DNA of 61,447 bases, the filler included, from an uncultured virus (IMG/VR IMGVR_UViG_3300005239_002421) (taxonomy: Duplodnaviria; Heunggongvirae; Uroviricota; Caudoviricetes). It is 6 parts of one record of this genome, joined end to end, with 100 filler letters (N's around TTAATTAATTAA, not from the genome) between each part and the next. Parts side by side here need not be neighbours in the genome. Positions count along the whole stretch, not along the records: positions 2,238 to 15,308 come from IMGVR_UViG_3300005239_002421; positions 15,409 to 20,211 come from IMGVR_UViG_3300005239_002421; positions 20,312 to 32,107 come from IMGVR_UViG_3300005239_002421; positions 32,208 to 57,276 come from IMGVR_UViG_3300005239_002421; 2 more parts are not named here. One strand, 5' to 3'. This document shows, in pieces, positions 10,634-44,270 of the stretch. The first letter of the stretch is position 1; each line of letters begins with the position of its first letter. The translations under genes and the position numbers were made by a program. The notes under the pieces are model-generated. The model had not been told where the DNA came from and searched no databases. It saw only the letters and a list, made by a program, of their open reading frames with translations.

Positions 10634-11995
10634 TTACTCTTTTTCGATTGGGAAATCGTGCTTTTTGAATAATTTTCTTGCACCTTGCTCGGTATCAAGT
10701 TGATGTTGAACAAACTCCGGTGAGGGTATAAAGAGGTTTGTTCTTTGGAATGTACTTCCAACCATATCAAACTGAGGCATTTCTTCGACCTTTTCTTTTG
10801 GGAAGCAATCATAATTAATCATCAGTTGCTTGATGTATATTAACTTTGATTTAATTTGGTCTTGCCATAAAGGATTTTTACCTGCATTGAAAGTAGATTC
10901 TGAAACTACAGACTTTCCTGATTGATTAGCAAACTCTGACTTAGATGGCTTACCATCTTTTATCCATTGTAATTTTTCACTTAAATACTTACTTCTTTTG
11001 ATTAAGAAATCACAACCATACTTATCATATCCTTTTTCTAAACTATCTACAAAGTCAGGAGTTATATAATCCTTGTTTAGTTTTGGTTTTTTTACTTTGG
11101 CAATCAAAGGAGTTGCTATATCTATATATACATAATCAAGTATCAACCTTACAGTTGTTAAAGGAAGTAAATTATATTTTATTTTCGTAAAACCATCTAG
11201 TATGTACCCTTTCCCTTTTGGTGTTATAATGTAATTTTGAGATTGATATGGGTCAATAGTCGGTGTAAGTACCTTTTGATATACTTTACCTGTAGCTAAT
11301 GTTCTATCAAATAAAAACGGCTCTAATATTTGTTCTTGATTTTCAGAAAATATTTGAAAATTCTTTATGTCATATGTTCTCTGAATTGTACTATACAAAA
11401 AGTCGTTGTAAGGGAAATTAGAAGTAGATATTACAGAAATATTGGGATTTGAAGGCAAAGTAGGTGCTGCGGCTGAGGCTGAAGGATATACTTGTATTTC
11501 GCCCCAATTTGCTGCACCGGTTTGACCACCTAATAACAAAGATTCTACTCCATAATTATATTGAGCAGTTTTAGCAATATTTTGTGCAGCTACATATGCA
11601 GGGTCTACAATAACTCTAATTACGAAACTTGAAGATTCAAGACCATAAGGTCCATCTATTGACCATTCTCCTATTACGGCAAATGGGTTAGCTGCATCAT
11701 TCAAATATAATACTAATTCATCAGTAGATAGATTTACTAATTTTGGGTCCGTAATAGAACTAACTACAAATGTACTACCATCTGCTCTATAAATTCTTAT
11801 TGCCACAGTACCATTAGAGAGTACAAGTTTAGTATTCCACCAATCACCCAAAGTATATATAGGTGACCAATTTTGTTCAAAGTTCCAAACAGTTTCCGTG
11901 CTTGTATTGGGTGCACCTAAAGATGAAGTTTCAAAAACTGAAAATTCTTGAACTTCTGTAGAATTATTTCTAAAACTAAATACCGATGCATCCAT
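10634..11995 (-). CDS. Capsid-protein paralogue (minor capsid, penton or turreted subunit candidate)
   Basis: Shares Y..FL, Q.LE, K.L.PTIDPYQ.Q and DGFT with the ORF at 40420-41169; has a large insertion. Confidence 0.6.
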   Translation of the reverse strand: MDASVFSFRNNSTEVQEFSVFETSSLGAPNTSTETVWNFEQNWSPIYTLGDWWNTKLVLSNGTVAIRIYRADGSTFVVSSITDPKLVNLSTDELVLYLNDAANPFAVIGEWSIDGPYGLESSSFVIRVIVDPAYVAAQNIAKTAQYNYGVESLLLGGQTGAANWGEIQVYPSASAAAPTLPSNPNISVISTSNFPYNDFLYSTIQRTYDIKNFQIFSENQEQILEPFLFDRTLATGKVYQKVLTPTIDPYQSQNYIITPKGKGYILDGFTKIKYNLLPLTTVRLILDYVYIDIATPLIAKVKKPKLNKDYITPDFVDSLEKGYDKYGCDFLIKRSKYLSEKLQWIKDGKPSKSEFANQSGKSVVSESTFNAGKNPLWQDQIKSKLIYIKQLMINYDCFPKEKVEEMPQFDMVGSTFQRTNLFIPSPEFVQHQLDTEQGARKLFKKHDFPIEKE

Positions 11996-12672
11996 TATTT
12001 GCTATTTTTTAGTATGGTGAACCAATCTTGGGTATTATCATTTAAATATCCTTTATTGTCAATACTTACAATTCGCTTTGTAACTCCATTACTGACATTC
12101 CCTCCAATTACCTCTATATTTTTTCTTTTTCTATTAACATCTACAACTATATCACAATGTGATTTATAACTACTTGTTGTATCATAGTTTACACCCCTTT
12201 GTCTAGGATAACATATTAAATCTCCTTTTTCAGGTTTAACTTCGTGTACCTTATATCCTTTAAAGTCCGATTTATTGTTTTGTTTTCTATTCTGAATAAA
12301 AGGTCTTATATAATTAGTATGTGCCGATGAATAAGGAAATTCGTTTCCGGCACCACTCTTTTTCATTATAAATGATATGAAAGCAGATGACCAAGGTGTT
12401 TTTCTATCACAACCATCATAATTTTTATCTGTTCCTTTTTTCCAATACTCTCCTACTCTTTCTTTATATATAGGAGTACACTCAAACTCTCCTGATTCTT
12501 CTAATTTACCTCCTACTATTACAGGGCTACCCCATAGTTTCCATTCTTTATTAGCATTTGAAATAATAGCAGATTTGAATCCACTTAAAAGATATTTTTT
12601 AAACAAAATATATAGACCTGCCGATACGACAAGTCCTATTCCAACTCCTATTGCTACCTGAGCCTTTTTCAC
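11995..12672 (-). CDS. DUF2272 (CHAP-like) peptidoglycan hydrolase with N-terminal TM anchor
   Basis: EW..WG..YW..PWSSAFIS..AH..YI..GDLICY.R..SHCDIVV..IGGNV. Confidence 0.8.
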   Translation of the reverse strand: MKKAQVAIGVGIGLVVSAGLYILFKKYLLSGFKSAIISNANKEWKLWGSPVIVGGKLEESGEFECTPIYKERVGEYWKKGTDKNYDGCDRKTPWSSAFISFIMKKSGAGNEFPYSSAHTNYIRPFIQNRKQNNKSDFKGYKVHEVKPEKGDLICYPRQRGVNYDTTSSYKSHCDIVVDVNRKRKNIEVIGGNVSNGVTKRIVSIDNKGYLNDNTQDWFTILKNSK

Positions 12673-13070
12673 TTTTTAAATTTAGTATAAGCATAATATC
12701 CAATAGCAAAAAATGCAGCCCAATAATACCATTTAATAGCCTTATTTTGCATAACTCCATCATCAGCCTTCTCTTCTACATTTCCATTAAGAACTCCTCC
12801 TAAAGACTCTCCTGCCTTGTTGTATTCTAAATTTATAGTATTTGTGCCTGATGAAAAATCTTTGATAGATACAGTTTTGTTCTTATATCCAACATAAGAA
12901 ATAGTAAGAAAGTCAGAAGGAAAGACATCAATGGTAAATAAACCTTTTTTATTTCCGCTTGTCTTTTTTTTATTATCAATAATATTACCCTCTCCATCAG
13001 TTACATAAACCGTTGCTTGTGGTAATATTTCTTGAGTTTTACTATCTACTACTAATCCGTTTGCTAACAT
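12669..13070 (-). CDS. Carboxypeptidase-regulatory-like (CarboxypepD_reg) domain protein with C-terminal TM
   Basis: G.VVDSKTQE.LP.ATV..G.F.I..LTISYVGY, a domain typical of Bacteroidota. Confidence 0.8.
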   Translation of the reverse strand: MLANGLVVDSKTQEILPQATVYVTDGEGNIIDNKKKTSGNKKGLFTIDVFPSDFLTISYVGYKNKTVSIKDFSSGTNTINLEYNKAGESLGGVLNGNVEEKADDGVMQNKAIKWYYWAAFFAIGYYAYTKFKK

Positions 13071-13364: not shown

Positions 13365-15308
13365 TATTTTCTTCCTAAAAAGATTCCTAACAGAATACCT
13401 GCTAGTCCTCCTATTAACATTGAATTATCACCTTTTTTCTTTACTTCGCCACCTTTTGCATAACTTATTCTATCTAATCTTTTTCCTAATTCTTCTTCAT
13501 CATTTTTCCACAAATAAAACATTTCTTTGGCTAAATCTTCTACATCTTCATCTTCTGCCAACTCATCTCTATTCCAACTTACAACCTCTACTCCATCTCT
13601 ATATATAAAAAAATCTCCTAATTCTCCATCTGCTCCATCTCCATAGGGGTTTCCCTCTATTGTAATCTTACCACCTTTAGCAAAACTCCCAACATACTTA
13701 TCATCTAAATATCTAAATTTTCTTGTAATTCTATATCCGTTTTCTTTTAAGTATTTGATTTCTTTTTTGCATCTTCTAAAGAATCGAATCCTTCGTTATA
13801 TTCATCCCCCTCACTATCTACATATTCAATGTCATACGAATATCGACTATCTAAATCTCCACCTTTAGCAAATCTTCCGATTTTCAATTCTCTTCCTTCT
13901 TTATAGTTATCCCCATCAAACCATTTAGATATTTTATCAATACCTTTTTGTAGTTTTTCTTTTAAATCTTCTATACTATCAAAAGTGAATTTGTCTTGTG
14001 TGTAATCTTCCATATTTCCTGTTCTGTGATAAGGTGCTTCCATATTTACATTACCGGTAAGAACTATAGTATGCTTACCATCAATACCTCTGCTATTATC
14101 AGGATTATAGTAAAATGCTTCTACTTCAAACATAATACTATCATCATCACTTCTTGAAAACATATCTAAATCTTCTGCCTCATCCATATATCCTGCATCC
14201 TGTAAAGAAGAGTAATCAACATTTTCAATACCTCCTAATTCTTTTACTATGTCAGGATATTCTTCTTCAAATCTTTCTTTACCATATTCATAATTTAGAT
14301 TTTCTACTCTTTCTAATTCAGCATCTAAAGTATTTGTAGGTAAAGATTTTCCTGAACCTGTCAAATAGTTCCCGTATGTGAAAAAACGGTATTCATAACC
14401 TCCATCAGTAAAAGGAATAAAGCCATCTCTGCTCTCGTATTCTACTTCTTCTCCTTCTATGTCTTGACCTTCATATTCTTGATTAGCATCTTCTAATACA
14501 TCTTCTAACTCATCTTTTAATACCTCTACTATATCTTCTCTGCTTATAGCTTCTCCACCCTCTGAAAAACCTTGAGGGAATTTAGAACTATATATTTCAT
14601 CGTTATATCGAGATGCATTATCAACAACTCTTACCCAAGTATTAGAATCTTCTATTTCTCTTGCTTTTGAAATTGCTCTTTTTTTATTTGGTGCCTCATC
14701 ATCTAAATGCACTACATCGTAGTTTTCATCGAAATCATAATCATTTTCGTTGTTGTAAACTCTAATAATATATTCTTTGTTTTCATCTAAATCCCCACCT
14801 TTTTCAAAACTTCTAATCACGAAAATATCTCCATCATTAGACTTGTATTTCATTTTAGGGAAATACTTTTGTTTAGCTTCTTCAAAATTATCTCTATTCT
14901 GTCTTTCTGAATCTACAAAAATCACTTTATAATTATCTCCTGCTAATACTTTTATTTCTTCTACATCATAATCATAATCTCCTCCGGACTGCCAATCATC
15001 TCCGAACTTTTGCTTTGCTAAATCAATTAAACCGTTTTCACTAACAAAATCATCTGTTGATGTATAATTTCCACTTAAATCGTTTCCTAAACTGCCACCT
15101 TTTGCATATTTAGATAAATCGTATTCTTTTACTGTTCCTCCCTTTTTATAGTTTTGAAAATAATGTCCATCATATTCGTTGTAATTGTTTATTGATAAAT
15201 CTCTTCCCAAAGCCTCATAGTCAAAATAAAATTCAGGATTTGAAACACCTTCAATACCACCTACATTATCAACATAATTTTCTCCTAATTCGTAATCTCC
15301 ATCATATT
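13364..15308 (-). CDS. xxGG-repeat polyprotein A: ArdA-like segment, acidic modules, C-terminal TM (5' truncated; -1 shift near 13765)
   Basis: Frame open to the gap with YFDYEALGRDL; 7 [YF]xxGG motifs; -1 frame continues to LIGGLAGILLGIFLGRK. Confidence 0.75.
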
Positions 15309-15408
15309 NNNNNNNNNNNNNNNNNNNNNNNNNNNNNNNNNNNNNNNNNNNNTTAATTAATTAANNNNNNNNNNNNNNNNNNNNNNNNNNNNNNNNNNNN
15401 NNNNNNNN

Positions 15409-15515
15409 CTTTTATAATCTCTTAATCTTTCATTAGCACTAAAAAGTTGCCAAATAAGAATAAATAGAATTATAATACATATAGTTAGTGCATTATTTTT
15501 AAGTTTAGAAAACAT
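15409..15515 (-). CDS. Membrane protein, N-terminal fragment (spanin-like position)
   Basis: MFSKLKNNALTICIIILFILIWQLF.. directly after the holin-like gene; runs into gap. Confidence 0.4.
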
Positions 15516-15523
15516 AATCCATT

Positions 15524-15718
15524 TTATTTCTTGTTTCCTATATTTGACAAGTGTTCTCCGGCATTACCTACTGCATAAATACCAAATATCCACATTACAA
15601 ACTCAGACCAATTAGCAAAGTCTGCCTGTCCAATAAACAAGAAAACTGTTGCACATATAAACAATAAAATCGCAAAAAACATTTTACGACCACCTAAAAA
15701 ACTAAATACTTTTTCCAT
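15524..15718 (-). CDS. Holin-like two-TM protein
   Basis: GGRKMFFAILL..W..FVMWIFGIYAVGNAGEH. Confidence 0.6.
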   Translation of the reverse strand: MEKVFSFLGGRKMFFAILLFICATVFLFIGQADFANWSEFVMWIFGIYAVGNAGEHLSNIGNKK

Positions 15719-15730
15719 TTTTTCTTTTTT

Positions 15731-16402
15731 TTAATTCATAATTCTAACATCATATATATTCTGATTGGCGGCTATTATTCTTCTATTAACCTCATCCCAA
15801 TTTATAATTTTAAATATATTTTTGATGTATTTCGTTCTGTCTGCATCGTATTTCAAATAATATGCGTGTTCCCACACATCTATTCCTAATAAAGGATATG
15901 ATTGATACTCAGGCATATATGGGTTGTCTTGATAAGGGGTAGCTAGTATATTTGTACTACCATCTCTATTCATTACCCACCATACCCATCCTGAGCCGAA
16001 TCTTTTCTGCGATGCTTCAATAATAAATTCTTTAAATTGTCCGTAAGTACCAAAGTCTTGAATAATTTTAGCCAATGAAACACCGTGTGGTGGATTTGAC
16101 TTTTTTGATGGATTAGGTTTAAGCATTTTCCAAAACATAGAATGATTTACATAACCTCCTCCATTATCTCTAATTTCAATTGGGTATCTATCTATGTTCT
16201 GCATTACTCTAATAACCGGGTCAGTAATATCATATTTGTCTACTGCTGCGTTAAACTTTTTTAAATACCCTAAATAATGTTTATTGTAGTGTATTTGCAT
16301 AGTTTCCTCATCAATATATGGCTCTAAACCGTTATATTTATAAGGAAGCCTTACAGGAGAAAAATGTATTAAATCATAGTCATCATATTTATTCATTTTC
16401 AA
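15731..16402 (-). CDS. sodA: Fe/Mn superoxide dismutase (Mn-type signature)
   Basis: LEPYID..HYNKH..GGYVNHSMFW..FGSGW..QDNP..DVWEHAYY. Confidence 0.95.
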   Translation of the reverse strand: MKMNKYDDYDLIHFSPVRLPYKYNGLEPYIDEETMQIHYNKHYLGYLKKFNAAVDKYDITDPVIRVMQNIDRYPIEIRDNGGGYVNHSMFWKMLKPNPSKKSNPPHGVSLAKIIQDFGTYGQFKEFIIEASQKRFGSGWVWWVMNRDGSTNILATPYQDNPYMPEYQSYPLLGIDVWEHAYYLKYDADRTKYIKNIFKIINWDEVNRRIIAANQNIYDVRIMN

Positions 16403-16825
16403 ACTTTTTATTGCGTGTTAAGTTGCGTGTGGTAACATACGAACCTCTGAACAAAGCAAAAGAACCAATTACACACACGACTAACAAAGCACTTAGAACA
16501 ACTTTATTATTCACTTATTACTTACACTTATAGATTAAGTAACCTAACATTCCAATGATAATTACATTGTGAACATTGTTACCACCTAAAAAATCTGCAC
16601 TTTTAATATCAAACATTTTTTTTAAATTTTTGGGTTAATACTCGTTTTATTTACTCTCCTGCAAGTTATATTTTTTAATGAGATTTTTAGCGATAGTTTG
16701 TAACTTCTTTTTATCGGCTCTTGCAGGTGGGAGATTGTCGTTAGTAATATTAAGTTTAGACTCTTGCATACTTGCAATTGTATATTTTAAATTCTTAACG
16801 ATTTCTCTTGCCCTATTTACACTCA

Positions 16826-17332
16826 CTACTTCTTCAATAATAAATAGGCACCTACACCTATTGCTATATATAAAATTAAATCATTATTATCTTTTTTACC
16901 TTCAACCGGCTGCGGATTTACTACAACTACAGGAGTAGGTGTTACAGGAACTTCTGTAATAGGCTCAGTAACTACATTTTCTACAATAGGTTTAGTAGGA
17001 GGCGAGTAATTGATTCCTAACTCATCTACTGCTATAATAGGGTCATCTATATGATGTCCCTGAATAGGGTCAACAAACACAGGTGGACCTTTTACAATTG
17101 GTGTATTGCAAGGGTCTTTATCTAATGTCCATCCTTGAGGGCAAACTGTTCCGGGGAACATATTAGAAACCCCAAATCCTTTATCACACTTATTACATAT
17201 TACAGTCTGAGTAACAGGGTCTACAGGTCTAGTTGGTACACTTGGCACCGAAACAGGTGGTCGATAAGTTGGTACTACAACCCTACTTCGACCTTGAGTA
17301 GCTGCTGCTTCAAACCATAATTCATTTGACAT
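16826..17332 (-). CDS. Pro/Cys-rich protein with C-terminal TM (virion membrane candidate)
   Basis: Starts MSNELWFEAAA; ends LILYIAIGVGAYLLLKK. Confidence 0.65.
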   Translation of the reverse strand: MSNELWFEAAATQGRSRVVVPTYRPPVSVPSVPTRPVDPVTQTVICNKCDKGFGVSNMFPGTVCPQGWTLDKDPCNTPIVKGPPVFVDPIQGHHIDDPIIAVDELGINYSPPTKPIVENVVTEPITEVPVTPTPVVVVNPQPVEGKKDNNDLILYIAIGVGAYLLLKK

Positions 17333-17525
17333 ATCTTTTTATTTTTTATTATTTAATCTAATCCTACTAATTCATCAATAGTTTTGCCATCGAAATATTT
17401 ATCTTTTAAGAAATTATCATAAAAACCAACCAAGGCTACAATAGCTAATAAGTTAAAAGCTACTTGATATTCAAAAGGGGCTAAACCACCTTTTTTTAAT
17501 TTATTGTATGACCTTTTATTCATTT

Positions 17526-17741
17526 TTAATCTTCATTTATATTCCAATCTTGCTGAGGCTTTACGGCAATTATTTTAGATGAATTTTCTTCTTTTAATTC
17601 TTTTTTTACTAATTTTATTCTTAAAACATCTAAATATGTTTTTACAATATAAGAAACTCCTATAGCAATTGCAATAGAACCTCCTACTGTTAGTATTTTT
17701 TGAAGATGACCTTCTTCTAAATAATCTTCCCACTTAGCCAT
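17526..17741 (-). CDS. Small membrane protein
   Basis: Single TM segment. Confidence 0.6.
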   Translation of the reverse strand: MAKWEDYLEEGHLQKILTVGGSIAIAIGVSYIVKTYLDVLRIKLVKKELKEENSSKIIAVKPQQDWNINED

Positions 17742-17862
17742 TTACAATGTGTTTTTAGTTATTGTAATATTTTTTGCTATATATTCTTGGTAAATCATAT
17801 AAGCACCGTACCCTGCAAGAGCATATTTTATTATTGAAAACATAGTATATTATTTTTATTTG

Positions 17863-18369
17863 TTATGCTCCACAAGAACCACAAGCATTACTCATATTTG
17901 AAGTTTGCCAATCAGTACCTTGTAGGTTTCCTGATGCATTACTCATATTAGAAGTTTGCCAATCAGTTCCTTGTAAATTTGCTCTTCTTGCTCCGTTTGC
18001 ATTTGAATAACCACTTCTTCCCGGCATAGCCGCTAACCAAGTAGCTTCCCAACCTGCACTTGGTTTTCTTCCCGGAATAGCTGCTAACCAATTGTTATCT
18101 CTACTAGGTATTGCTTTAACATTAGGTGGACCATAAGGAATCATATATCCTCTTCTTGCTCCTGATGCGTTTTGGAATACTCCACCATCTTGCCACATAG
18201 TTTCTCTGTTTCTACCACTTTGTTGCCAATTAGTTCCTGTGAAACTTGAAGTTGGTTCAGCACCTTCAATTGGTGGAACTGTACTTGTTTTTGGTTTAGA
18301 GAAATGCTCGTAAGCTGCATATGCTCCAAATCCTGCTAGTCCGTAAAGACCGATTTTCATTAAATCCAT
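17863..18369 (-). CDS. N-terminal TM protein with repeated NAxG motifs
   Basis: FQNASG, YSNANG, MSNASG, MSNACG; tandem NLQGTDWQTSNMSNA x2 and WLAAxPGR x2. Confidence 0.75.
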   Translation of the reverse strand: MDLMKIGLYGLAGFGAYAAYEHFSKPKTSTVPPIEGAEPTSSFTGTNWQQSGRNRETMWQDGGVFQNASGARRGYMIPYGPPNVKAIPSRDNNWLAAIPGRKPSAGWEATWLAAMPGRSGYSNANGARRANLQGTDWQTSNMSNASGNLQGTDWQTSNMSNACGSCGA

Positions 18370-18388
18370 TTTTCTTTTTTTTTATTGA

Positions 18389-18802
18389 TTAATAATTATT
18401 TAATTTTTGTTTAATAGGTATTTCTAAAACTTCGCTACCTTGAAATTTATATTCATTTTCAGGGTACATCATTTGCGAGTTACCTAAGTTGTCTATTCCC
18501 CAAACAGGAAAATCCACATCTTTCATTGTGATTCTTCCATTTGGAATGAGATTATAAGGTTTGTTTATGTCCTTACTATCTCTTTTATAACCTGTAACAG
18601 AATATATGTCACCATTAAATCCTAATGATGCGGTTCCTCCTATTGGCAAACCTCCAATTACTCCACTATCAGGTACAGTCACAACATAAGGTTGTGATTG
18701 TCTATTAGAATCAAAAAAGTTGTCACCTTCGTTAAACCAAGAATCTCTTGTGTCTAACAAATTAGATACATCAGCATAGCCATCTTTAATAATACTATCC
18801 AT
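18389..18802 (-). CDS. Hypothetical protein with conserved-looking C-terminal beta domain
   Basis: GYKRDS..NLIP..ITMKDVDFPVWGIDNLGN..MYP..Y.F.G..V.EIP. Confidence 0.65.
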   Translation of the reverse strand: MDSIIKDGYADVSNLLDTRDSWFNEGDNFFDSNRQSQPYVVTVPDSGVIGGLPIGGTASLGFNGDIYSVTGYKRDSKDINKPYNLIPNGRITMKDVDFPVWGIDNLGNSQMMYPENEYKFQGSEVLEIPIKQKLNNY

Positions 18803-18968
18803 TTAATCCTCTTTTGTCTAATTCTTCTTTTACTATTTTCTTTACACCCGGTCTAAAAACATATATTTCTGCCCACATTTCAAGAGCAACAAAGGCACCT
18901 ACTGCTACTGCTACTGTACCCCAATTTATTTTATCACCGAATAACTTCATATTACCTTTTATATATTA

Positions 18969-19337: not shown

Positions 19338-19350
19338 TTTATTGTTTTTC

Positions 19351-19494
19351 TTACTTCTTTTTATATATCATCATACCTGTCTTTGTTTTTGATGCAACAT
19401 AGGTACTTCCGTTATAACTAAAAGATTTTTTTCCGGCTTTTCTTGCCTTTTCTTTTGCTTTCATATAAGCATTCATTGCTCTTTTCTTTGCCAT
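19351..19494 (-). CDS. Small basic putative DNA-binding protein (47 aa)
   Basis: Read manually: MAKKRAMNAYMKAKEKARKAGKKSFSYNGSTYVASKTKTGMMIYKKK*. Confidence 0.7.
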   Translation of the reverse strand: MAKKRAMNAYMKAKEKARKAGKKSFSYNGSTYVASKTKTGMMIYKKK

Positions 19495-19931: not shown

Positions 19932-19937
19932 AATTTT

Positions 19938-34035: not shown

Positions 34036-34039
34036 AATT

Positions 34040-35022: not shown

Positions 35023-35025
35023 AAT

Positions 35026-35835: not shown

Positions 35836-35845
35836 ATTTCTTTTT

Positions 35846-36115
35846 TTAATTATCCATTACACCGTTTTTGAAACGGTATGCCCCAAGTTTTAATCCTTCT
35901 ACTCCTCCAAACTTAGATTTTGTTTTACAATCTTTATTTGTGAAAATTCCATCTCCACTATCATCCATACTGTCACAACCTCTATCCCAAGTTAGTACAG
36001 GCTCATATGAATACTTATCTCCTCCTACAGTAATAACTGCATCTCCGGATTGATTAAACCAAAGTTCTGTACTATTTTGTGCTCCTGATTGATTAAACCA
36101 TAAATTGTTTTCCAT
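35846..36115 (-). CDS. Small protein with two LWFNQSG motifs
   Basis: Likely start MENNLWFNQSGAQNSTELWFNQSG. Confidence 0.65.
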   Translation of the reverse strand: MENNLWFNQSGAQNSTELWFNQSGDAVITVGGDKYSYEPVLTWDRGCDSMDDSGDGIFTNKDCKTKSKFGGVEGLKLGAYRFKNGVMDN

Positions 36116-36125
36116 TTTCTTTTTT

Positions 36126-36449
36126 TTAATAATCTCCAAACATAAAATCACTACTACCACCAAATCCAAACCACACATCTGAATTGGCTTTTGTTCCTCC
36201 ACTTGCATTTAGCATAGATGGAGTAATATTTTGATAAGGGTCAATCACACTTGTATTAACTCTTGTAGATGTATTACCTGCAACTGCATTTCCTGTTGTA
36301 ACACTATATTGTTCAGTTGGACCACCAATACCATCTCCACCAAAAATTGATGAATAATCGCATCCGCTTCCATCAGGTAAACTACATAATGGATAGCAAG
36401 GGTCATTTGTAACATATTGTCCGTTACATAACATTGTTTTGTTGCTCAT
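36126..36449 (-). CDS. Cys-rich small protein
   Basis: MLNASG; ends WFGFGGSSDFMFGDY. Confidence 0.65.
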   Translation of the reverse strand: MSNKTMLCNGQYVTNDPCYPLCSLPDGSGCDYSSIFGGDGIGGPTEQYSVTTGNAVAGNTSTRVNTSVIDPYQNITPSMLNASGGTKANSDVWFGFGGSSDFMFGDY

Positions 36450-36453
36450 AATT

Positions 36454-37143
36454 TTATCTTTTTATTACTTTATAAATACCATATCCAACTGCTCCAAGAA
36501 CTAAAAATCCAAGCATTAAGTTTGTAGGACTATTTAGACCTCCTGTTGCTGCTGCGGATTGTGTAAATAATTGTTGTTGATTAGCCAAATTGACTTGTTG
36601 TGCTTGTTGTTCTGCAATACAAGCTGATTCCATAGCATCTTTTATACTTGGTCTACGAATACCTCTTGTTTTTCTTGCTCTTGCATTAACTCTTTTAGAA
36701 CCTCTACTTCCGCCATCTTTATTGGCTTCTAATCTATCTACATCTCCATCTAATCTTTCTAAACTTGATGTAAGAACCGCACAGTTTCCTGTATTAGGAT
36801 ATTCTGCATTTACTTTAGCTTGTTCTTTAGCTTCTCGTTCTCTTTCAGCTTTCTTTTTACTCCAAGTTATTCCTAAAAATCCGGGATGGTTACTCCATAC
36901 ATCACTATCAGGCATTGAATTATTATCATCATCAGTTAAGACCATATTTGGTCTATTTCCAATATGATGGTCTAATGTGATTGATTCTTCTCCTGATGCA
37001 TTAAAAGCAGTACCAACTATCTGAGATACTCTTACTGCTTCTTCTTTTGTTACATTTCCTGCTTGATTTGACCAAACTGTGTTACCCCAAGGCATATCAT
37101 TTGGCACATCTGAAGCATCCATATTTAAAAAGTTATTGTCCAT
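36454..37143 (-). CDS. C-terminal TM protein with several N-x-x-G motifs
   Basis: WSNQAG, FNASG, WSNHPG. Confidence 0.7.
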   Translation of the reverse strand: MDNNFLNMDASDVPNDMPWGNTVWSNQAGNVTKEEAVRVSQIVGTAFNASGEESITLDHHIGNRPNMVLTDDDNNSMPDSDVWSNHPGFLGITWSKKKAEREREAKEQAKVNAEYPNTGNCAVLTSSLERLDGDVDRLEANKDGGSRGSKRVNARARKTRGIRRPSIKDAMESACIAEQQAQQVNLANQQQLFTQSAAATGGLNSPTNLMLGFLVLGAVGYGIYKVIKR

Positions 37144-37159
37144 TTTTTATATTTTTTTA

Positions 37160-37288
37160 TTAAGCTGATTCTTGTCCTTTATAATATCCATAGCCAATTA
37201 CATAAAATAATACTCCTACTGATACCATTGATAAAACAAAATTACCTACACTCATTTTCGATACATTTTCTTCTTCTGTTCTTTCCAT
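37160..37288 (-). CDS. Small membrane protein
   Basis: MSVG..VIGYG..KG, like the C-terminus of 37305 and the fragment at 24245-24343. Confidence 0.6.
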   Translation of the reverse strand: MERTEEENVSKMSVGNFVLSMVSVGVLFYVIGYGYYKGQESA

Positions 37289-37304
37289 TTTTTTAATTTT
37301 TTTA

Positions 37305-37790
37305 TTACTTAGCAGCCGTACCGCCTTTTCTAATTGAATAACCAATTACAAATGCAGTTAAACCAATTCCTAAATATCCCATCAATAATTTACCTACACT
37401 CATTTGCATATTTGAACTATCTCTTCCGGAGAATCTTCTGTAAATTATTCCTGAGCCTGTTGGCAATGGTTTTACAGGTGTTCTTCTGTCCATTAGTGGC
37501 GGTAATAGTCTTTCATCACCTGCCGCATTTTGGAATACTCCACCATCTTGCCACATAGTTTCACGATTTCTTCCTGATTGTTGCCAATTAGTACCCGTAA
37601 AACTTCTAAAGTTTTGTCTTTGCCCTCTTGGACCATATCTTAATGAGCCTTGTGAAGGAACTCCTCTTGTTTTTGATATTCCTCCTCCTTCTACTCTTGC
37701 ATCGCAAGGGTCACATCCTCCTGAAGAAGTCATTTGCCCAAAACAACTTGAGCCATCTGCCAATATTCTGCTACAATTATATGCTGCCAT
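37305..37790 (-). CDS. Cys-rich N-terminus, C-terminal TM protein
   Basis: Contains a 27-aa block identical to one in the ORF at 17863. Confidence 0.7.
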   Translation of the reverse strand: MAAYNCSRILADGSSCFGQMTSSGGCDPCDARVEGGGISKTRGVPSQGSLRYGPRGQRQNFRSFTGTNWQQSGRNRETMWQDGGVFQNAAGDERLLPPLMDRRTPVKPLPTGSGIIYRRFSGRDSSNMQMSVGKLLMGYLGIGLTAFVIGYSIRKGGTAAK

Positions 37791-37808
37791 ATCTTTTAAT
37801 TTTTATTA

Positions 37809-38639
37809 TTATCTACTTGCTTTCAAATTAGGTGTACTATTCTGAGTGCAAAATTTATTTCTTTCAAAATTTGTTATAAACTGATTTAAAATGTCAAATC
37901 TTTCTTTATTTTGAGGTGTTGGAGTGTCCTTAAATGTTGTAAGGAAACTTTGATAAGCCTCTATTCTTGGATAACCAAGAGCCAAATAAATTAATAATCC
38001 ATTCAAATCTGCTTCTGTTTCATCTTCCATATTCTCATTCAAATAAAAATGAGAAAACTCGTGTAATAGAATTGCCATTCTCATTGGAACAGTAAACTTT
38101 TTATAATGTGCTTTGCTTACTTGTATAATTCCTTTTGACTGACTAATTCTTGCAGGGGTTTGTATTACCAAACCTCTTTTTGTTCTAATATCATCAAAGT
38201 AATCTATTCTAAAATTACCCTCATCTGAGATATATGTGCTTCCGTTTGGAAACTTTCCTGCACTTAATATTCCTGCGTTGTCTGAGAATTGTTGAGCAAA
38301 ATTTGCAAAATCTCTTATTTTTGGATTACTCCAATCAACACAATCCATTTTTCTTTCTAATGGTCTAGCATCTATTTTTACAACTTTAAATGATGCATCT
38401 TGACCCTTTTTCAAATTACCGTTAGCTTTATTATATACACTTATAAGTGCTTCATAAGGAGATAAAGGCATTCTAACGAAGAATCTTTGCTTACCATCAA
38501 TAGTTGCATATCTATTAGTATAATCAGTATTAGGCTTATTAATATCCTTAACTACTATCTGAATTTTTTGAGGACTATTTGTTACGACCTCTATCATAAT
38601 AGTTAACGATTTTTGCTTTGTTTTAAATAAAATATTCAT
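37809..38639 (-). CDS. Zinc metallopeptidase (HEXXH), candidate virion maturation protease
   Basis: ILLHEFSH..ETEAD zincin pattern, located in the structural module. Confidence 0.75.
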   Translation of the reverse strand: MNILFKTKQKSLTIMIEVVTNSPQKIQIVVKDINKPNTDYTNRYATIDGKQRFFVRMPLSPYEALISVYNKANGNLKKGQDASFKVVKIDARPLERKMDCVDWSNPKIRDFANFAQQFSDNAGILSAGKFPNGSTYISDEGNFRIDYFDDIRTKRGLVIQTPARISQSKGIIQVSKAHYKKFTVPMRMAILLHEFSHFYLNENMEDETEADLNGLLIYLALGYPRIEAYQSFLTTFKDTPTPQNKERFDILNQFITNFERNKFCTQNSTPNLKASR

Positions 38640-38767
38640 TTCTTAATTACCAAAATTATTAAACCTAATAATATGACTCCTCCTACTAACCTTAATCGAG
38701 TTACTGATATACCCTTTATTTGCATATCCATTTCTTCTCTTTCCAAAGGTTGTAGTGCCACTTATCA

Positions 38768-39076
38768 TTACTTTTTAAAATTTATAATACTCTCCTTTGC
38801 TATGTAACCTCCGGCTAATCCTCCGGCTAAAACTCCCATCCATACACTTTTCTTTCTCCATAATGATAGAATAGCCCCTAATACACTTCCTAATACTGCT
38901 CCTTTCAACATCTCTTTAGTGCTATCTTTAACTAAAGCTGCCTTTCCATCATCTACAATCGTACTGATACTTTCTTGTGTTTCAGTTGGCATTGTCATTC
39001 TGTTTGTGACATTATTTTGTCCATCAAAAGAAATTTCCTGAGCCTCATCAAAAAGATTTACTTCGCTATCAAACAT
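38768..39076 (-). CDS. Two-TM glycine-zipper membrane protein
   Basis: GAVLGSVLGA..GVLAGGLAGG. Confidence 0.7.
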   Translation of the reverse strand: MFDSEVNLFDEAQEISFDGQNNVTNRMTMPTETQESISTIVDDGKAALVKDSTKEMLKGAVLGSVLGAILSLWRKKSVWMGVLAGGLAGGYIAKESIINFKK

Positions 39077-39087
39077 ATTTCAAAGAA

Positions 39088-39783
39088 CTAATTTTGTACT
39101 GCCGGTGATGAACTTCCTTTTCTACTATTATATAAAGCAAAACCTATAACTGCTAAAACCCCAACACCTAATAAAATAAATACAACTTTGCTAGAGCCTC
39201 CTAAACCTGCTTGAGTTGGCGGTAATACAGTTTGATTTGCACCTAATTCCATTTGCTGCAACATCAAATCTCTATTCATTCCTGCAAGTTCTAATTCGTG
39301 AGCCCTTTGCTTTCCTGCTTCTTTATAGCTTTTATTTCCTTGCCAAATACCTGCAATTGTAGATAATACCTGAACTCCTCCGTTTAACCATTGTCCGCCT
39401 GTAACTCCTGCTCCTGCACTTACCGGTGGGGCAGGAACACCTGCTTGATTCATAAATCCATCTCTAGGCGAATCCGTGTCCATTGGACTAATTTCTTCTG
39501 CACCTTCAATAAATGGCAATTGATTAGCTAAAACTAATTTCATAATTCCTAGCCTTACACATTCACTTGTTAAATTGTATGCTACTGCCGTAACTAATTC
39601 AACTTTTCCTGCTCGTGAAGAAACTCTCACACCACAGTTAATAAGTGTTTTTCGTACTAAAGCCGGTCTACCCTCTATCACTTTAGCAACTTCGGATAAC
39701 ATTAACTCTCTCGTTATAGCCATATCTTTTGTTTTATTTATTGCTTTAAAATTTTCTTTAAAATTATGATGCTCATATCTCAT
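39088..39783 (-). CDS. Virion membrane protein candidate
   Basis: FMNQAG; amphipathic segment and C-terminal TM. Confidence 0.7.
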   Translation of the reverse strand: MRYEHHNFKENFKAINKTKDMAITRELMLSEVAKVIEGRPALVRKTLINCGVRVSSRAGKVELVTAVAYNLTSECVRLGIMKLVLANQLPFIEGAEEISPMDTDSPRDGFMNQAGVPAPPVSAGAGVTGGQWLNGGVQVLSTIAGIWQGNKSYKEAGKQRAHELELAGMNRDLMLQQMELGANQTVLPPTQAGLGGSSKVVFILLGVGVLAVIGFALYNSRKGSSSPAVQN

Positions 39784-39784
39784 A

Positions 39785-40294
39785 CTACTTTTTTGCTATT
39801 ATATATCCTACCGCAAAACCAACGGCTAATAAAAGAATTGGAGATGTTTGCATTTCTTTCATTTTTCTATCTCTTGCTCTCCTATCTCTTTTTAGCTTTT
39901 CTCTAAGTATTTCTTTTTTTACTTCTTTTATTTCACTTACTACCTCTTTTGCATCAAAATTAGAACTTGATGTATTAGGCTCAAATGAAGATGGAGCCTC
40001 CGGTTTAAATGGGGTTGGCTCTACAACTTCAGGTTCAGCAAATCCCGGTGTTCTACCTGTTGCATAAGCGAAATCTTTATCTGAACCAAATGATTTAGTG
40101 AAAGACTCTAATAAAGACTTATCAGGATGAATTTCACTAATATCTTGTAAGGCAACTTTTTTGTATTTTCTTACAATTATTTTTAATCTGCTAATTAACT
40201 CACTTATACTGTTGGTAGCTTGAAAACCATAATTACTTAAAAGTTCATTAGCCCCTGAAGAATTATTATGTGCTATGTATGTGTATAAATTCAT
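39785..40294 (-). CDS. C-terminal TM protein downstream of capsid gene
   Basis: YIAHNN..A..LL..YG..IHPDK; terminal TM. Confidence 0.7.
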   Translation of the reverse strand: MNLYTYIAHNNSSGANELLSNYGFQATNSISELISRLKIIVRKYKKVALQDISEIHPDKSLLESFTKSFGSDKDFAYATGRTPGFAEPEVVEPTPFKPEAPSSFEPNTSSSNFDAKEVVSEIKEVKKEILREKLKRDRRARDRKMKEMQTSPILLLAVGFAVGYIIAKK

Positions 40295-40332: not shown

Positions 40333-40385
40333 AAAAAAAAAATGGGGCTCGAAGAAAATGCCTTTGCATCTACCTCTGCCCCATT
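40333..40385 (-). terminator. Rho-independent terminator after putative major capsid gene
   Basis: AAUGGGGC..GAUGC-AAAG-GCAUU..GCCCCA hairpin followed by a 10-U tract. Confidence 0.85.
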
Positions 40386-40419
40386 TAATATCTAATCTCT
40401 AAGAATTAATAACTTAATA

Positions 40420-41169
40420 TTAACCCTGTAATGCACGAGCAACTCCTTGACCAAGAACAATCTTGTCTTGTCTTACAACATTTGGATTACCATAACCACG
40501 AGCAATTGAATTGCCTGTTAGAGCACGACCTTGAGAAACAGTTTCAGATGGGAACAAGTAGACTTTTAAAGTCGCTTTTGCTGCAATACTGTTAACTGTT
40601 AATGTAGTAAAGCCATCCCACTTATAGGTATGCTTTAATACAGTAATGTCTGTTTGGTTTTGGTAAGGGTCAATTGTAGGAACAAGAGTTTTTTGTTGTT
40701 GATTACCATTAGAGTCAACTACTTTTACTACGATAGTTTCTAGGACCTGTGTTGAGCCTCCATCACTTTGTAGGTAAGTTAATCCAACCACGAATGGTTT
40801 AGATGAACTTTGCCATAAAAATTCAAGATAAGTTACACCTGAAATAGCCATATTATATAGGATATTTGCCGTGTTACCTGCTTCACCTGCCGGAATACCT
40901 CCACCTGCTGCGATTGCGGTTACCTTAGTTATCGTGTTATATGCTCCACCAATTTCAACAGATGCTACATCTGCTGCCGTAGAGTTATATAATGAGATAA
41001 TGTAAGGTTGTGATGAACTAGCATCAGCCGAACCCATTGCGTTTAAGTATTCTTCTTCAGAACCACCAAAGTCAAAAGCATCATCCCAATCATTTACACC
41101 ATTAGCTGACATAAATTCGTTTGAAATGTTTTCTTCTGCATCAGAGAAATAACGGTTTAAATTTTCCAT
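40420..41169 (-). CDS. Putative major capsid protein (single beta-sandwich/jelly-roll-like) with acidic N-terminal propeptide
   Basis: Beta-rich; high-expression-type codons (GCT, CGT, AAC); own promoter and terminator; near the packaging ATPase; has a paralogue. Fold is inferred, not computed. Confidence 0.6.
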   Translation of the reverse strand: MENLNRYFSDAEENISNEFMSANGVNDWDDAFDFGGSEEEYLNAMGSADASSSQPYIISLYNSTAADVASVEIGGAYNTITKVTAIAAGGGIPAGEAGNTANILYNMAISGVTYLEFLWQSSSKPFVVGLTYLQSDGGSTQVLETIVVKVVDSNGNQQQKTLVPTIDPYQNQTDITVLKHTYKWDGFTTLTVNSIAAKATLKVYLFPSETVSQGRALTGNSIARGYGNPNVVRQDKIVLGQGVARALQG

Positions 41170-41372: not shown

Positions 41373-41501
41373 CTATGCTTCACCATCTTTGTCTAGGAAA
41401 TTCTTTTCAACCACATTTGCTCCAATGATACCTATCATTACACCAACTGCGACTCCAAGAATACCCATCAACATAGACTTCTTTCCTTTTCCTTCAATCA
41501 T
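41373..41501 (-). CDS. Small TM protein upstream of capsid gene (42 aa)
   Basis: Read manually: MIEGKGKKSMLMGILGVAVGVMIGIIGANVVEKNFLDKDGEA*. Confidence 0.7.
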   Translation of the reverse strand: MIEGKGKKSMLMGILGVAVGVMIGIIGANVVEKNFLDKDGEA

Positions 41502-41687: not shown

Positions 41688-41924
41688 TTAAAATGATTTT
41701 TTAACTTCATTTACTATTACACCATTCATAATAGAAAATATTCCTACTATTAATGCTAACTTAACTAACTCTTTAGAATCCGGTAATTTGAAGTTATTTG
41801 GATTTGTCACTTCGCCTTCTAATTCTTTTGTATGATTTTTACCCATATTAAAATGGATAATTGCTTCAGTCATAAATAGAACAAAAGTTGTGCCTCCAAC
41901 AATAAGACCTAGATTCTTTTTCAT
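41688..41924 (-). CDS. Two-TM protein
   Basis: TTFVLFMTEAIIHFNMG..FKLPD..LALIVGIFS; TATCTTTG 4 nt upstream of the ATG. Confidence 0.7.
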   Translation of the reverse strand: MKKNLGLIVGGTTFVLFMTEAIIHFNMGKNHTKELEGEVTNPNNFKLPDSKELVKLALIVGIFSIMNGVIVNEVKKSF

Positions 41925-41958: not shown

Positions 41959-43431
41959 TTAATTCAATATTTTTTCAATTTCCATTCCTGTTAAAACATA
42001 CTTAATATCAGGATTTATAGCAATATGATATTCTTTATAAAGCCCCATAGCTATTGCCATTGAAACAGAAGGATTACAATAAAATTTATTACATTTTTTT
42101 ATCATCCAAGCCATATCATATAAGTCTTTTACTTTATCGCCATAAAAAATTAAATTATCTTTTACATCGTATTCTTTTAAAAGGGCTTCATATTCATCTT
42201 TCAAACCAATAAAATAGTTTTTACCTTTTTGTTCTTTAATACATTTTTCCCAATCAAAATCTACTCCATCTCTGTACCTTTGCGTTATATGAAATACATT
42301 AAATTTTCCCTTTGGAATTTCTACATTATTATTTAATTCGGGAGTATTAAATGTAAAGTCATCCTTCAATAATAAATAGGGAAACGGGGTATCTTGAGGA
42401 TTTTCTTTCCAAACTCTAAAATATGAAAACACTACTTGTTCTTCAAAAAGTTTTGGCGAAAGCCTAAAATAATCTAAATCATAATCTAACTCTACTGAAT
42501 TATCATATTTTACTTTAACACCTGTGTCGATTTCAGATGTTGAACCTTTTTTGTATGTTTTTTCTCCAAAACCATCTTTATATAAATTTACATTATTTAT
42601 ATAAGGTTGACATTTAAGCAGCCTGTATAAAGATTGATATTGCTTATTGGTGGCAGAAAATTTATGTTTATTTTTTAAATAAATATCTCCTCCTCCTTTT
42701 TTAATAATTAATGGCAATGAAAATATTACATCTCCTAAACTTCCGCTATGTAAAAAACTTTGAACTCTTTTTTTAGAAAAATTTTCTACTCCTACTTCTT
42801 CTATAAATTCTTCTGTGCTCTTTATATTCATCCACTCTTCTCTGTTTTTTGAGAAATTATCCCAATCAAGAGTTATTTTACCTTTGATAGCCGGTTTTTT
42901 CTTTTGGGCAAATGTAATCATACCAACCCCTGTATCTGTATCAATTACTGACATTTCTACATCTGTTCTTTCATTTCTAACTCGAACAAATGCTTTCCAA
43001 ACATCTCCATTCCAATAACTTGTTACTGCCGGTACTTTTTGATGGTCCTCTTCTAAAGGCAAACAATCGTGCATTAAAATTGTACCCCCTTTATTTAAAC
43101 AATCTATAGAATTATTTATATCTCTATATACTTGCTCATTTAGGTGTAATCCATCAATAAATATAATATCATATTTGTGATTGTGATTTTTAAAATATTC
43201 ATCTGATGTCATTCTAAAATCTACATCTATTTCTGATGGTTTCCATTTTTTATCAGATGTACTTTTAGCAACAGAAAATTCCGCTAAAAATCCTTCATCT
43301 AAAGGGTCACATCCTTTTTTATCATCTATTATAATTTGATTGAAACATTCTTTATCCCTTACCCCTATTTCGAGATATGTTTTGTAATTGTTTTTTTTAA
43401 TCAATGCGTTTATAATGTCAAATCTTTTCAT
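41959..43431 (-). CDS. Class I SAM methyltransferase fused to a GT-B (GT9-like) glycosyltransferase domain
   Basis: YLEIGV..DIIFIDGLH..GGTILMHDCLP..WNGDVWKA; then HSGSLGDVIFSLP. Confidence 0.8.
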   Translation of the reverse strand: MKRFDIINALIKKNNYKTYLEIGVRDKECFNQIIIDDKKGCDPLDEGFLAEFSVAKSTSDKKWKPSEIDVDFRMTSDEYFKNHNHKYDIIFIDGLHLNEQVYRDINNSIDCLNKGGTILMHDCLPLEEDHQKVPAVTSYWNGDVWKAFVRVRNERTDVEMSVIDTDTGVGMITFAQKKKPAIKGKITLDWDNFSKNREEWMNIKSTEEFIEEVGVENFSKKRVQSFLHSGSLGDVIFSLPLIIKKGGGDIYLKNKHKFSATNKQYQSLYRLLKCQPYINNVNLYKDGFGEKTYKKGSTSEIDTGVKVKYDNSVELDYDLDYFRLSPKLFEEQVVFSYFRVWKENPQDTPFPYLLLKDDFTFNTPELNNNVEIPKGKFNVFHITQRYRDGVDFDWEKCIKEQKGKNYFIGLKDEYEALLKEYDVKDNLIFYGDKVKDLYDMAWMIKKCNKFYCNPSVSMAIAMGLYKEYHIAINPDIKYVLTGMEIEKILN

Positions 43432-43451
43432 TTATTTATTTTTTAAAATAT

Positions 43452-44270
43452 TTATGTTAGGAAATATTGCTGCCTTATTCTACCCCTAACTTGTCTAATA
43501 GCTTCATCTCTATCAATTTTAGAGCCATCACTTAAACTTTTTTTATTAATAGCAGGTTTTACTACGGAATTAAAATTTTTAGATAAGTATTCATCTATTC
43601 CATTATTTATAATTGCTTCAGACATTTTTCCTTTTAATTTTTCTTCATCTAAATCTACATACATAAAATATCTAGGATTATCATTAAAATACTGTGTGTT
43701 TACTATGTTTTCAGCTATACTAAACATTTCGTATTTATCAGGAAATTTATTTCTATGTCTTTCAATACTATCTGAGTTTTTATGAAACCTCAACCAATTA
43801 GCATTTTGCCATACTTTAGTTGTTATTCTTCCAATACTCTGAAAATGCATAATAATATCTAAGTCTGTGTGTCTGTTGGAGCAAATAGCACCTACAATAT
43901 CTGTTGGAAGATGGTCACCTACATACTTATTAATGTCCTCAATCAATAACATACCCCCTCTAAAATAGTGTAGTATATCCCATAATTGATTTGCTATTTC
44001 TTTTAAAGTAAGTCTTATTCCTGTCTGCTCATTAAAAGGTCTTACCCTTCTTATTTCTGCGGTAGGCATAACAGAAAATCTTACTAAATCTTTCATAGAT
44101 ATAGCTTTATAATCTACAAACTCATCATTAACATCTAAAATTAATACTCTACGAGGAAGAACCCCTTTTGATGGATTTCCATAAACATAGGATTCAATAA
44201 GTATTTTAGTTTGATAGGTTTTACCAATCCCTTTTTTTCCTACTGCCATTCCTAGCTTTGGTTCTCTCAT
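43452..44270 (-). CDS. FtsK/HerA-superfamily genome-packaging ATPase (A32/P9-like)
   Basis: Walker A GKKGIGKT, ILDVNDEF, Walker B LLIEDI, arginine-finger region NRHTDLDIIMHFQS..VWQNA; 272 aa, no nuclease domain. Confidence 0.8.
   Translation of the reverse strand: MREPKLGMAVGKKGIGKTYQTKILIESYVYGNPSKGVLPRRVLILDVNDEFVDYKAISMKDLVRFSVMPTAEIRRVRPFNEQTGIRLTLKEIANQLWDILHYFRGGMLLIEDINKYVGDHLPTDIVGAICSNRHTDLDIIMHFQSIGRITTKVWQNANWLRFHKNSDSIERHRNKFPDKYEMFSIAENIVNTQYFNDNPRYFMYVDLDEEKLKGKMSEAIINNGIDEYLSKNFNSVVKPAINKKSLSDGSKIDRDEAIRQVRGRIRQQYFLT

Follow-up and report, generated by a model that had tools for sequence, protein, structure and literature searches.

A predicted PRD1/PM2/STIV-type virion module in a large, widespread lineage of uncultivated bacterial viruses

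What kind of particle is built by a bacterial virus when more than 60 kb of its DNA holds no recognizable gene for a tailed-phage head or tail? The question is raised by a stretch of 61,447 bases (hereafter the window) from an uncultured virus, IMGVR_UViG_3300005239_002421. The window has 30% GC and nearly all of its long open reading frames (ORFs) lie on the minus strand; no tRNA was found in its 61,447 bases. A preliminary description, made from the sequence, had proposed a tailless, lipid-containing phage lineage with a genome above 60 kb. Our answer is that the window is probably part of a larger genome of a widespread, uncultivated lineage of bacterial viruses, with a virion module of the type found in PRD1, PM2 and Sulfolobus turreted icosahedral virus (STIV) and not of the tailed-phage type. 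The earlier proposal is supported in part, most strongly by its ATPase; relatives have genomes of 60-132 kb, and tailed-phage hallmarks were not detected. The identity of the capsid protein, the membrane and the particle shape are carried forward here as predictions.

The gene that carries most of this reading is the following.

43452..44270, minus strand: packaging ATPase of the FtsK-HerA superfamily, P9/B204/A32-like, 272 aa (motifs, profiles, AlphaFold2 (AF2) model)

The predicted protein has a Walker A motif, GKKGIGKT, at residues 11-18 and a Walker B motif, LLIEDIN, at residues 108-114. Its family comprises 835 proteins at E <= 1e-3, out of 1,258 candidates. Six positions (G11, K13, G16, K17, E111 and D112) are invariant across 42 diverse members. 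The HerA central domain (DUF87, PF01935) is matched by 33 of the 42, and by the window copy at E 9.4e-4, which lies under Pfam's cut-off. The FtsK/HerA-type ATPase of the preliminary description is thus borne out. phrog_2666 is matched by 30 of the 42 members (best E 5.7e-8; window copy E 1.8e-4), and PRD1 P9 (E 1.1e-64) and PM2 P9 (E 2.6e-50) match the same region of this profile. PHROGs labels phrog_2666 'terminase large subunit'; because the two P9 proteins fall there, we read it as the packaging ATPase family of tailless phages. Records in the phage collection likewise label PRD1 P9 and PM2 P9 'terminase large subunit', and label the PRD1 capsid protein P3 'minor head protein'. Since P9 is mislabelled as a terminase, automatic annotation could lend a tailless phage an apparent terminase.

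The AF2 model of the ATPase is confident, with a predicted local distance difference test score (pLDDT) of 89.3. When it was compared with the PDB by Foldseek, ranks 1-14 were all the B204 packaging NTPase of STIV and STIV2 (best E 8.9e-9). These matches are about a thousandfold better than those to SIR2/HerA, Zot and RadA. The best BFVD matches are a Corticoviridae NTPase, A32-like ATPases of giant viruses, the Haloarcula virus PH1 ATPase, mavirus and STIV. TerL is absent among the 50 best VIA matches. By sequence, tblastn against 50,697 phage records returned nothing even at E 10, a PDB profile search gave only the ClpB P-loop (E 0.02), and hhalign against single P9 sequences gave uninformative probabilities of 24% and 13.5%. 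The comparison with A32, P9 and STIV B204 that had been proposed for this gene came out with B204 at the top of the structural matches and with the P9 family matched; Pox_A32 was not among the seven Pfam families matched by the 42 members at E <= 0.01. By predicted fold and by profile, we assign the protein to the P9/B204 family of packaging ATPases.

The second line of evidence is the absence of tailed-phage genes. The 88 minus-strand ORFs of the window were scanned with PHROGs and Pfam at E <= 1e-3, and no terminase, portal, HK97 capsid, tail or tape-measure gene was found among them, in agreement with the first inspection. The window contains 18 runs of N, and the longest, at 464 bases, is too small to conceal a terminase or portal. 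A profile of the ATPase retrieved 74 loci from IMG/VR, with 21 contigs of at least 60 kb and a largest of 102 kb. Three full genomes were then scanned: G5 (79 kb; Pfam and PHROGs on 105 of 108 chosen ORFs and afterwards on a 1,371-aa ORF, with ORFs of 92 and 109 aa left out), G1 (101 kb; Pfam on 127 ORFs, with one 72-aa ORF left out) and G6 (132 kb; PHROGs on 132 of the 138 ORFs of at least 110 aa, with six boundary-crossing ORFs left out). Sequence profiles detected no terminase, portal, HK97 capsid, tube, sheath or tape measure in G5, G1 or G6, and tail-category PHROG scans of the window, G5 and G6 gave no baseplate match. PF03237 was matched in none of five IMG/VR records, all rated 100% complete by CheckV. 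Tail-category PHROG matches were limited to lysozyme, M23, CHAP or peptidase domains and one 163-aa fibre-adhesin domain in G6.

G5, G1 and G6 are colinear end to end and have their termini in common, which suggests a linear genome with fixed ends. A search of the 3-kb ends of the window, G5 and G1 found no terminal repeats. The window aligns colinearly with roughly 25-81 kb of G6; it therefore comes from one genome, of which it covers a part.

Could these genomes instead belong to a very divergent tailed phage, with hallmark genes that escape Pfam and PHROGs and an ATPase that has another role? About half of the proteins are unannotated, and tailed phages commonly carry RecT, RusA, exonuclease, endolysins and polyvalent proteins. 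Matches to tail-fibre-adhesin and tail-lysozyme domains point in that direction too, but every tail-category match falls on a lytic or adhesin domain. TerL is the tailed-phage gene most readily detected, yet it was found neither in the window nor in the three full genomes, and among packaging-type families only the one with PRD1 P9 and PM2 P9 was matched. We consider a tailed phage of this sort improbable. A non-viral large plasmid or mobile element, using a HerA/VirB4-like ATPase for transfer or secretion, is more improbable still. No relaxase, coupling protein or type IV secretion gene appeared in scans of the window, G5, G1 and G6, and endolysins and a lysis-type gene set are present. At 272 aa, the ATPase is close to viral packaging ATPases (about 200 residues in B204; 227 and 218 aa in the P9 proteins) and unlike VirB4. 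Moreover, the DNA is found in IMG/VR and in a sequencing run labelled viral metagenome, and the three relatives have the same ends.

A virion module of the PRD1/PM2/STIV type would also need a jelly-roll capsid protein. The candidate, which we call SJR-1, lies downstream of the ATPase with a small transmembrane (TM) gene.

40420..41169, minus strand: SJR-1, candidate major capsid protein, 249 aa, one jelly-roll-like beta-sandwich (AF2 model)
about 40333..40386, minus strand: hairpin and U10 resembling an intrinsic terminator, after SJR-1 (sequence and fold)
41373..41501, minus strand: 42-aa ORF with a single TM segment, upstream of SJR-1 (read from the sequence)

The AF2 model of SJR-1, built from 59 sequences (pLDDT 68.8), has a single beta-sandwich at residues 55-207, with about ten strands from residue 56 to 207. 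The N-terminus of the model is disordered, acidic and aromatic. The hairpin (AAUGGGGC...GCCCCAUU, then U10) folds at -29 kcal/mol within a 101-nt stretch; a consensus terminator scan missed it because its loop is long. The beta-rich 249-aa gene with its own terminator and the small TM gene just upstream, both picked out in the preliminary description, are therefore found as described. A jelly roll was expected there. The modelled fold is jelly-roll-like, but Foldseek gave no match at E <= 1e-3, and the match scores fall in a range that the tool calls common and that does not fix function. No meaningful match came from PDB sequence profiles, none from tblastn against the 50,697 phage records, and no useful neighbour from the ESM Atlas (best 0.78). 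Single stray PHROGs matches were seen for 3 of the 59 members. Against PM2 P2 and PRD1 P31, hhalign gave a probability of 0.1%, and SJR-1 is not shown to belong to any known capsid protein family. Neither an HK97 capsid, TerL or portal gene elsewhere, nor a non-jelly-roll fold, nor a mixture of genomes, the outcomes that the earlier description had set against itself, arose from the profiles, the AF2 model or the colinearity with G6.

The SJR-1 family is nevertheless large. There are 870 homologues out of 1,541 candidates, on contigs of up to 89 kb, and a HMMER search over 1.84 billion representatives gave 841 clusters at 50% identity, mostly of 200-260 aa. SJR-1 is the best conserved protein among G5, G1 and G6, at 77-79% identity versus 60-69% for the ATPase. 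In 55 of the 74 loci it lies about 1.2 kb past the ATPase start on the same strand. Conservation, place after the ATPase, the terminator and the flanking membrane genes support SJR-1 as a candidate capsid protein.

A paralogue, SJR-2, is found about 30 kb from SJR-1, next to peptidoglycan hydrolases.

10634..11995, minus strand: SJR-2, candidate vertex or minor capsid protein, 453 aa (residues 176-288 paralogous to the SJR-1 domain)
11995..12672, minus strand: DUF2272/CHAP peptidoglycan hydrolase with an N-terminal TM anchor (PF10030, E 6.9e-30; TM by hydropathy)
12669..13070, minus strand: CarboxypepD_reg-like domain protein (Pfam), with a hydrophobic C-terminal stretch under the hydropathy threshold

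Residues 176-288 of SJR-2 align with the SJR-1 domain at an hhalign probability of 98.3% (E 1.7e-14). Its orthologues in G1, G5 and G6 are 147-180 aa long and lie at the far end of the late gene block. Each has a variable large protein as its neighbour: a 491-aa protein in G5, an NHL beta-propeller in G1 and a 747-aa repeat protein in G6, where a fibre-adhesin-like protein is also nearby. This setting would suit a vertex protein that adjoins a receptor-binding spike. The CarboxypepD_reg-like protein has orthologues in four of five full-length relatives. Two SJR paralogues were detected in the window, G1, G2, G3, G5 and G6, and one in G4. Tandem two-domain SJR proteins occur in relatives (P0425 and P0482). 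The 102-kb relative G003 (L105) has six SJR domains in five ORFs, with two in tandem in a 406-aa ORF at about 17.4-18.4 kb, 40 kb from the ATPase; the others lie at 6.7, 14.6, 59.2 and 97.4 kb. This multiplication may represent stages on the way to a double jelly roll, or may indicate that the domain is a general-purpose module.

The latter possibility bears on a different virion plan, in which a P9/A32-like ATPase serves an enveloped, pleomorphic or otherwise unrecognized particle and the SJR proteins are spikes or adhesins. The SJR fold matches carbohydrate-binding modules, fibre tips and TNF/C1q no less well than it matches capsid proteins; the domains are multiplied in G003; SJR-2 sits beside variable large proteins, among them the beta-propeller of G1 and the repeat and tail-fibre-adhesin-like proteins of G6; and many membrane proteins fit an envelope. 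However, SJR-1 is more conserved than usual adhesins, judging from its identity among G5, G1 and G6 and the near-uniform length of its 841 clusters. It occupies the place of the PM2 capsid gene after the ATPase, and the best ATPase matches come from icosahedral viruses. We therefore regard this plan as unlikely, although it is the most serious of the alternatives, and continue with the PRD1/PM2/STIV-type module.

Around the ATPase and SJR-1, the order of the conserved genes is the same, on one strand, in all loci where they were seen. In the window this region holds the following.

49148..50116, minus strand: PAP2-superfamily phosphatase (PF01569, E 4.5e-9)
46304..47035, minus strand: conserved 243-aa protein directly upstream of the ATPase, with a domain of about 90 aa, a proline-rich linker and a basic tail, KRRRGRPRKK
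41959..43431, minus strand: 490-aa methyltransferase-domain protein between the ATPase and SJR-1 (PHROGs, Pfam)
41688..41924, minus strand: 78-aa protein with two hydrophobic segments (hydropathy; homologue in G5)
37809..38639, minus strand: conserved 276-aa HExxH protein, putative zincin metalloprotease (motif in sequence)

Upstream of the ATPase, the PAP2 phosphatase lies at about 2.6 kb (68 of 74 loci) and the 243-aa protein, which has no family match, at about 0.7 kb (71 of 74). Downstream are a 169-aa tail-anchored protein at about 2 kb (19 of 74) and the HExxH protein at about 5.8 kb (47 of 74). The PAP2 phosphatase has no predicted TM segment; were its substrate a lipid or undecaprenyl phosphate, that would be of interest in a virion with a membrane. 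For the HExxH protein, support for peptidase activity is weak: there are hints of M56, M48 and SprT and an ESM Atlas lead (0.87) to a DUF4344 metallopeptidase, and its PDB sequence-profile search was empty.

An internal membrane would call for membrane proteins, and these are many.

26566..40294, minus strand: about 25 small genes for candidate virion membrane proteins, mostly with a single C- or N-terminal TM segment and aromatic motifs (includes a LEA_2 protein at 27596-28081)

A crude hydropathy scan (Kyte-Doolittle, window of 19, threshold 1.6) found at least one hydrophobic segment in 28 of 87 window ORFs, 14 with a single C-terminal and eight with a single N-terminal segment. Nearly all lie at 11995-41924, and G5, G1 and G6 have comparable shares. 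The dozens of single-TM proteins first reported come down to about two dozen. Many of the small TM proteins carry aromatic motifs, namely WFNQSG and NHPGFLG near the N-terminus and FMGDY and MWFND at the C-terminus. As these were defined after being noticed, shuffle counts make them look more significant than they are. Cysteine-bounded repeats of the form C-x-DP-x-A-x-NYNP-x-A-x-DDGSC occur in 25346-26119, 24878-25327 and 31602-32060, with five in one protein. The cysteine-repeat proteins have C-terminal endings FDGTF..GDY or MWFND in common, and the HNH protein at 4798-5172 ends in FFMGDYQVK. The repeats may be a small disulfide module and the endings a sorting or docking tag.

A further class comprises large acidic proteins with a recurring motif.

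13747..23148, minus strand: acidic [FYM]-[AE]-K-G-G proteins (13747-15210, 20264-22054 and 22057-23148), with the Fe/Mn superoxide dismutase and small TM genes
51350..56741, minus strand: second set of [FYM]-[AE]-K-G-G proteins (51350-52180, 52969-55659 and 55665-56741)

In its broader form, [FYMLWN]-[AEKSM]-[KERD]-G-G, the motif has 34 of its 35 copies in ORFs of at least 100 aa within these six proteins, at 3-10 copies each. Over all minus-strand ORFs there are 36 copies versus 1.8 expected from shuffles. Giant proteins of relatives carry it as well, with 14 copies in the 1,371-aa protein of G5 and 15 in a 2,575-aa protein of G1; these giant proteins include a polyvalent one with ART and RelA_SpoT domains. 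The motif may be a protease site or a docking motif; the proteases of adenovirus and African swine fever virus cut GG-X sites between GG and X. The giant proteins of the relatives include one of 3,772 aa (G5 L077:53-11371), the 2,575-aa protein (G1 L080:9892-17619) and one of 1,933 aa (G1 L101:122-5923). The last is polyvalent, with Zeta-toxin kinase, DUF5824, DUF5661 and ART domains.

How might such a virion work? We propose an icosahedral shell built of SJR-1, in which SJR-2 serves as a vertex or minor protein. Beneath this shell would lie an internal lipid vesicle studded with tail-anchored membrane proteins, and the ATPase would pump linear double-stranded DNA into the procapsid through a special vertex. 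The large acidic and polyvalent proteins might also be packaged and enter the cell with the DNA, and the HExxH protein perhaps cuts packaged proteins at [FYM]-[AE]-K-G-G sites. The membrane-anchored CHAP/DUF2272 hydrolase would aid entry, and Amidase_3 would give lysis. Going further, we suggest tentatively, as a possibility short of probable, a tailless membrane-containing lineage of order level or higher, with by far the largest such genomes (60-132 kb), abundant and nearly clonal in the ocean and present in fresh water, with a shell of SJR proteins unrelated in sequence to known capsid proteins and virions that hold KGG-processed giant proteins cut by a zincin.

The remaining annotated genes of the window are the following.

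2186..8060, minus strand: recombination and modification genes, namely RecT (2186-2977), HNH nuclease, PD-(D/E)XK exonuclease (6106-6936) and FkbM methyltransferase (PHROGs, Pfam)
15731-16402, minus strand: Fe/Mn superoxide dismutase, within the late gene block (Pfam)
47982..49218, minus strand: RusA resolvase (47982-48383) and Amidase_3 endolysin (48502-49218) (PHROGs, Pfam)
57584..61446, minus strand: DarB-like superfamily 2 helicase in two ORFs, of which the upstream one leaves the window edge (phrog_10089, Helicase_C)

PHROGs and Pfam matches thus comprise RecT, HNH nuclease, PD-(D/E)XK exonuclease, several methyltransferases, the DUF2272/CHAP hydrolase, superoxide dismutase, RusA, Amidase_3, PAP2 phosphatase and the DarB-like helicase pieces. 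The RecT, exonuclease, RusA and amidase genes named at the outset are each present. Almost no match falls in about 30 kb of the window, at roughly 13-41 kb. Copies of the superoxide dismutase, 68-93% identical, recur on long contigs of up to 104 kb outside the window, which marks the gene as stable in this virus clade. Relatives also encode APS kinase, sulfotransferases, glycosyltransferases and a cytidylyltransferase, and this points to modification of glycans by virus-coded enzymes. At one genome end, G1 has six DNA methyltransferase genes (five N6_N4_Mtase and one MT-A70; L079:1943-7910) adjoining an RNase_T exonuclease. In the window, five pairs of 44-N runs, 12 bases apart in each pair, lie at 2138-2237, 15309-15408, 20212-20311, 32108-32207 and 57277-57376, each intergenic and directly 3' of a gene. 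Because reading frames continue across them, they appear to be 1:1 masks that cover an intergenic repeat of about 100 bp, and not gaps.

Where is this virus found, and in which host? Fourteen DNA sequencing runs from 11 studies (2015-2025) contain 0.81-0.82 of the sampled 31-mers of the 9.9-kb stretch 37000-46900. All are marine or seawater runs except one freshwater run and one labelled viral metagenome. Six RNA runs contain the stretch at 0.29-0.61. The population is unusually uniform and widespread, and the best-matching run may be the source sample. The encoded peptidoglycan hydrolases show the host to be a bacterium. Of 14 control genomes, Bacteroides alone is matched by DUF3127 and DUF6965 of relatives, if a Sulfolobus hit under the threshold is left aside. 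In the window, the Bacteroidetes -7 motif TAnnTTTG occurs 88 times versus 93.4 expected, which is no enrichment.

Several other host clues were uninformative. Matches of cellular length to the superoxide dismutase are 53-57% identical and nearly all unnamed, and the best within 151 genomes of one phylum is 48%. The best RecT matches are actinophages at 38%, which probably reflects the phage content of the database. CarbopepD_reg_2 was matched in 7 of the 14 control genomes. Metagenome-assembled genome bins give eight different labels for nine loci, and the Sediminibacterium bin label of the 132-kb G6 belongs to a sequence that is virus-like from 3 to 124 kb, without host flank.

The genomes of tailless membrane-containing phages in culture span about 9-44 kb. 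A lineage such as this, with hundreds of diverged members, would alter the size range thought possible for such viruses, and would fill part of the size gap between small prokaryotic and large eukaryotic jelly-roll viruses. Among prokaryotic viruses, it would also allow a test of the scaling between jelly-roll capsids and genome size. Most marine virus particles counted by electron microscopy are non-tailed, while sequence catalogues are dominated by tailed phages; the lineage could explain some of the non-tailed particles counted in seawater. Its spread is supported by the 841 SJR-1 clusters and by near-identical DNA in the 11 studies. The ATPase, SJR-1, PAP2 and HExxH genes would provide a sequence handle for counting it in viromes, where tools keyed to tailed phages may miss or misfile it. 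No description of such a lineage was found in the literature searched.

By analogy, the lineage would work like PRD1, PM2, STIV and P23-77, with an A32/P9-type motor, jelly-roll proteins and many small membrane proteins. STIV is an archaeal virus of about 17 kb. B204 of STIV and STIV2 (Turriviridae) is 15-20% identical to the window ATPase, which has about 55 extra C-terminal helical residues. The Thermus viruses P23-77 and IN93 and the haloarchaeal sphaerolipoviruses have genomes of 17-31 kb. The ATPase of haloarchaeal PH1 is among the best BFVD matches of the window ATPase, but capsid proteins of this group are absent among the 50 best structural matches for SJR-1, and the distance of about 30 kb between SJR-1 and SJR-2 is a further difference. 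The group's plan combines two related single beta-barrels, an A32-like ATPase and an internal membrane; P23-77, IN93 and SSIP-1 each use two capsid protein types, which are single beta-barrels in P23-77 (PMC6356626, excerpted text).

SSIP-1 is the nearest cultured analogue in size and style, with 43,788 bp, a structural ATPase and a 2,319-aa structural protein annotated as a methyltransferase. At 44 kb it is, to our knowledge, the largest cultured tailless membrane-containing phage, and its host is allied to Bacteroidota. BLASTP at 1e-3 and four family profiles found no similarity between SSIP-1 and the window, G5, G1 or G6. Its GC content is 57% versus 30% in the window, and its record is circular.

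Iyer et al. 2017 (PMC5512222, excerpted text) report that phages and conjugative elements have polyvalent proteins, which are packaged and which zincin peptidases process. The present lineage resembles these systems in its relatives' 1,244-1,933 aa proteins with ART-PolyVal, RelA_SpoT and Zeta-toxin domains, in the DarB-like helicase pieces of the window and in a conserved zincin-type protease candidate. It is because of this analogy that we read the KGG proteins and the HExxH protein as possible packaged substrates and protease. Here the KGG motif marks polyvalent and other large acidic proteins; the excerpted text of PMC5512222 mentions no such motif.

The closest parallel in layout is with Corticoviridae (PM2) and Tectiviridae (PRD1), the P9 proteins of which fall in phrog_2666 with the window's ATPase. 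Their genomes are 10 and 15 kb, versus 60-132 kb in this lineage. The capsid protein of PM2 and PRD1 is a double jelly roll, whereas SJR-1 models as one sandwich and has no sequence similarity to P2 or P31. Neither a protein-primed polymerase nor a terminal protein was seen in scans of the relatives. As in PM2 and PRD1, lytic enzymes are found inside the structural region. The PM2 order P9, P7, P2, P3, P4, P8 resembles that of the window, which runs from the ATPase through a small TM gene and SJR-1 to the membrane genes, and the 42-aa TM ORF sits where PM2 has P7, between P9 and P2.

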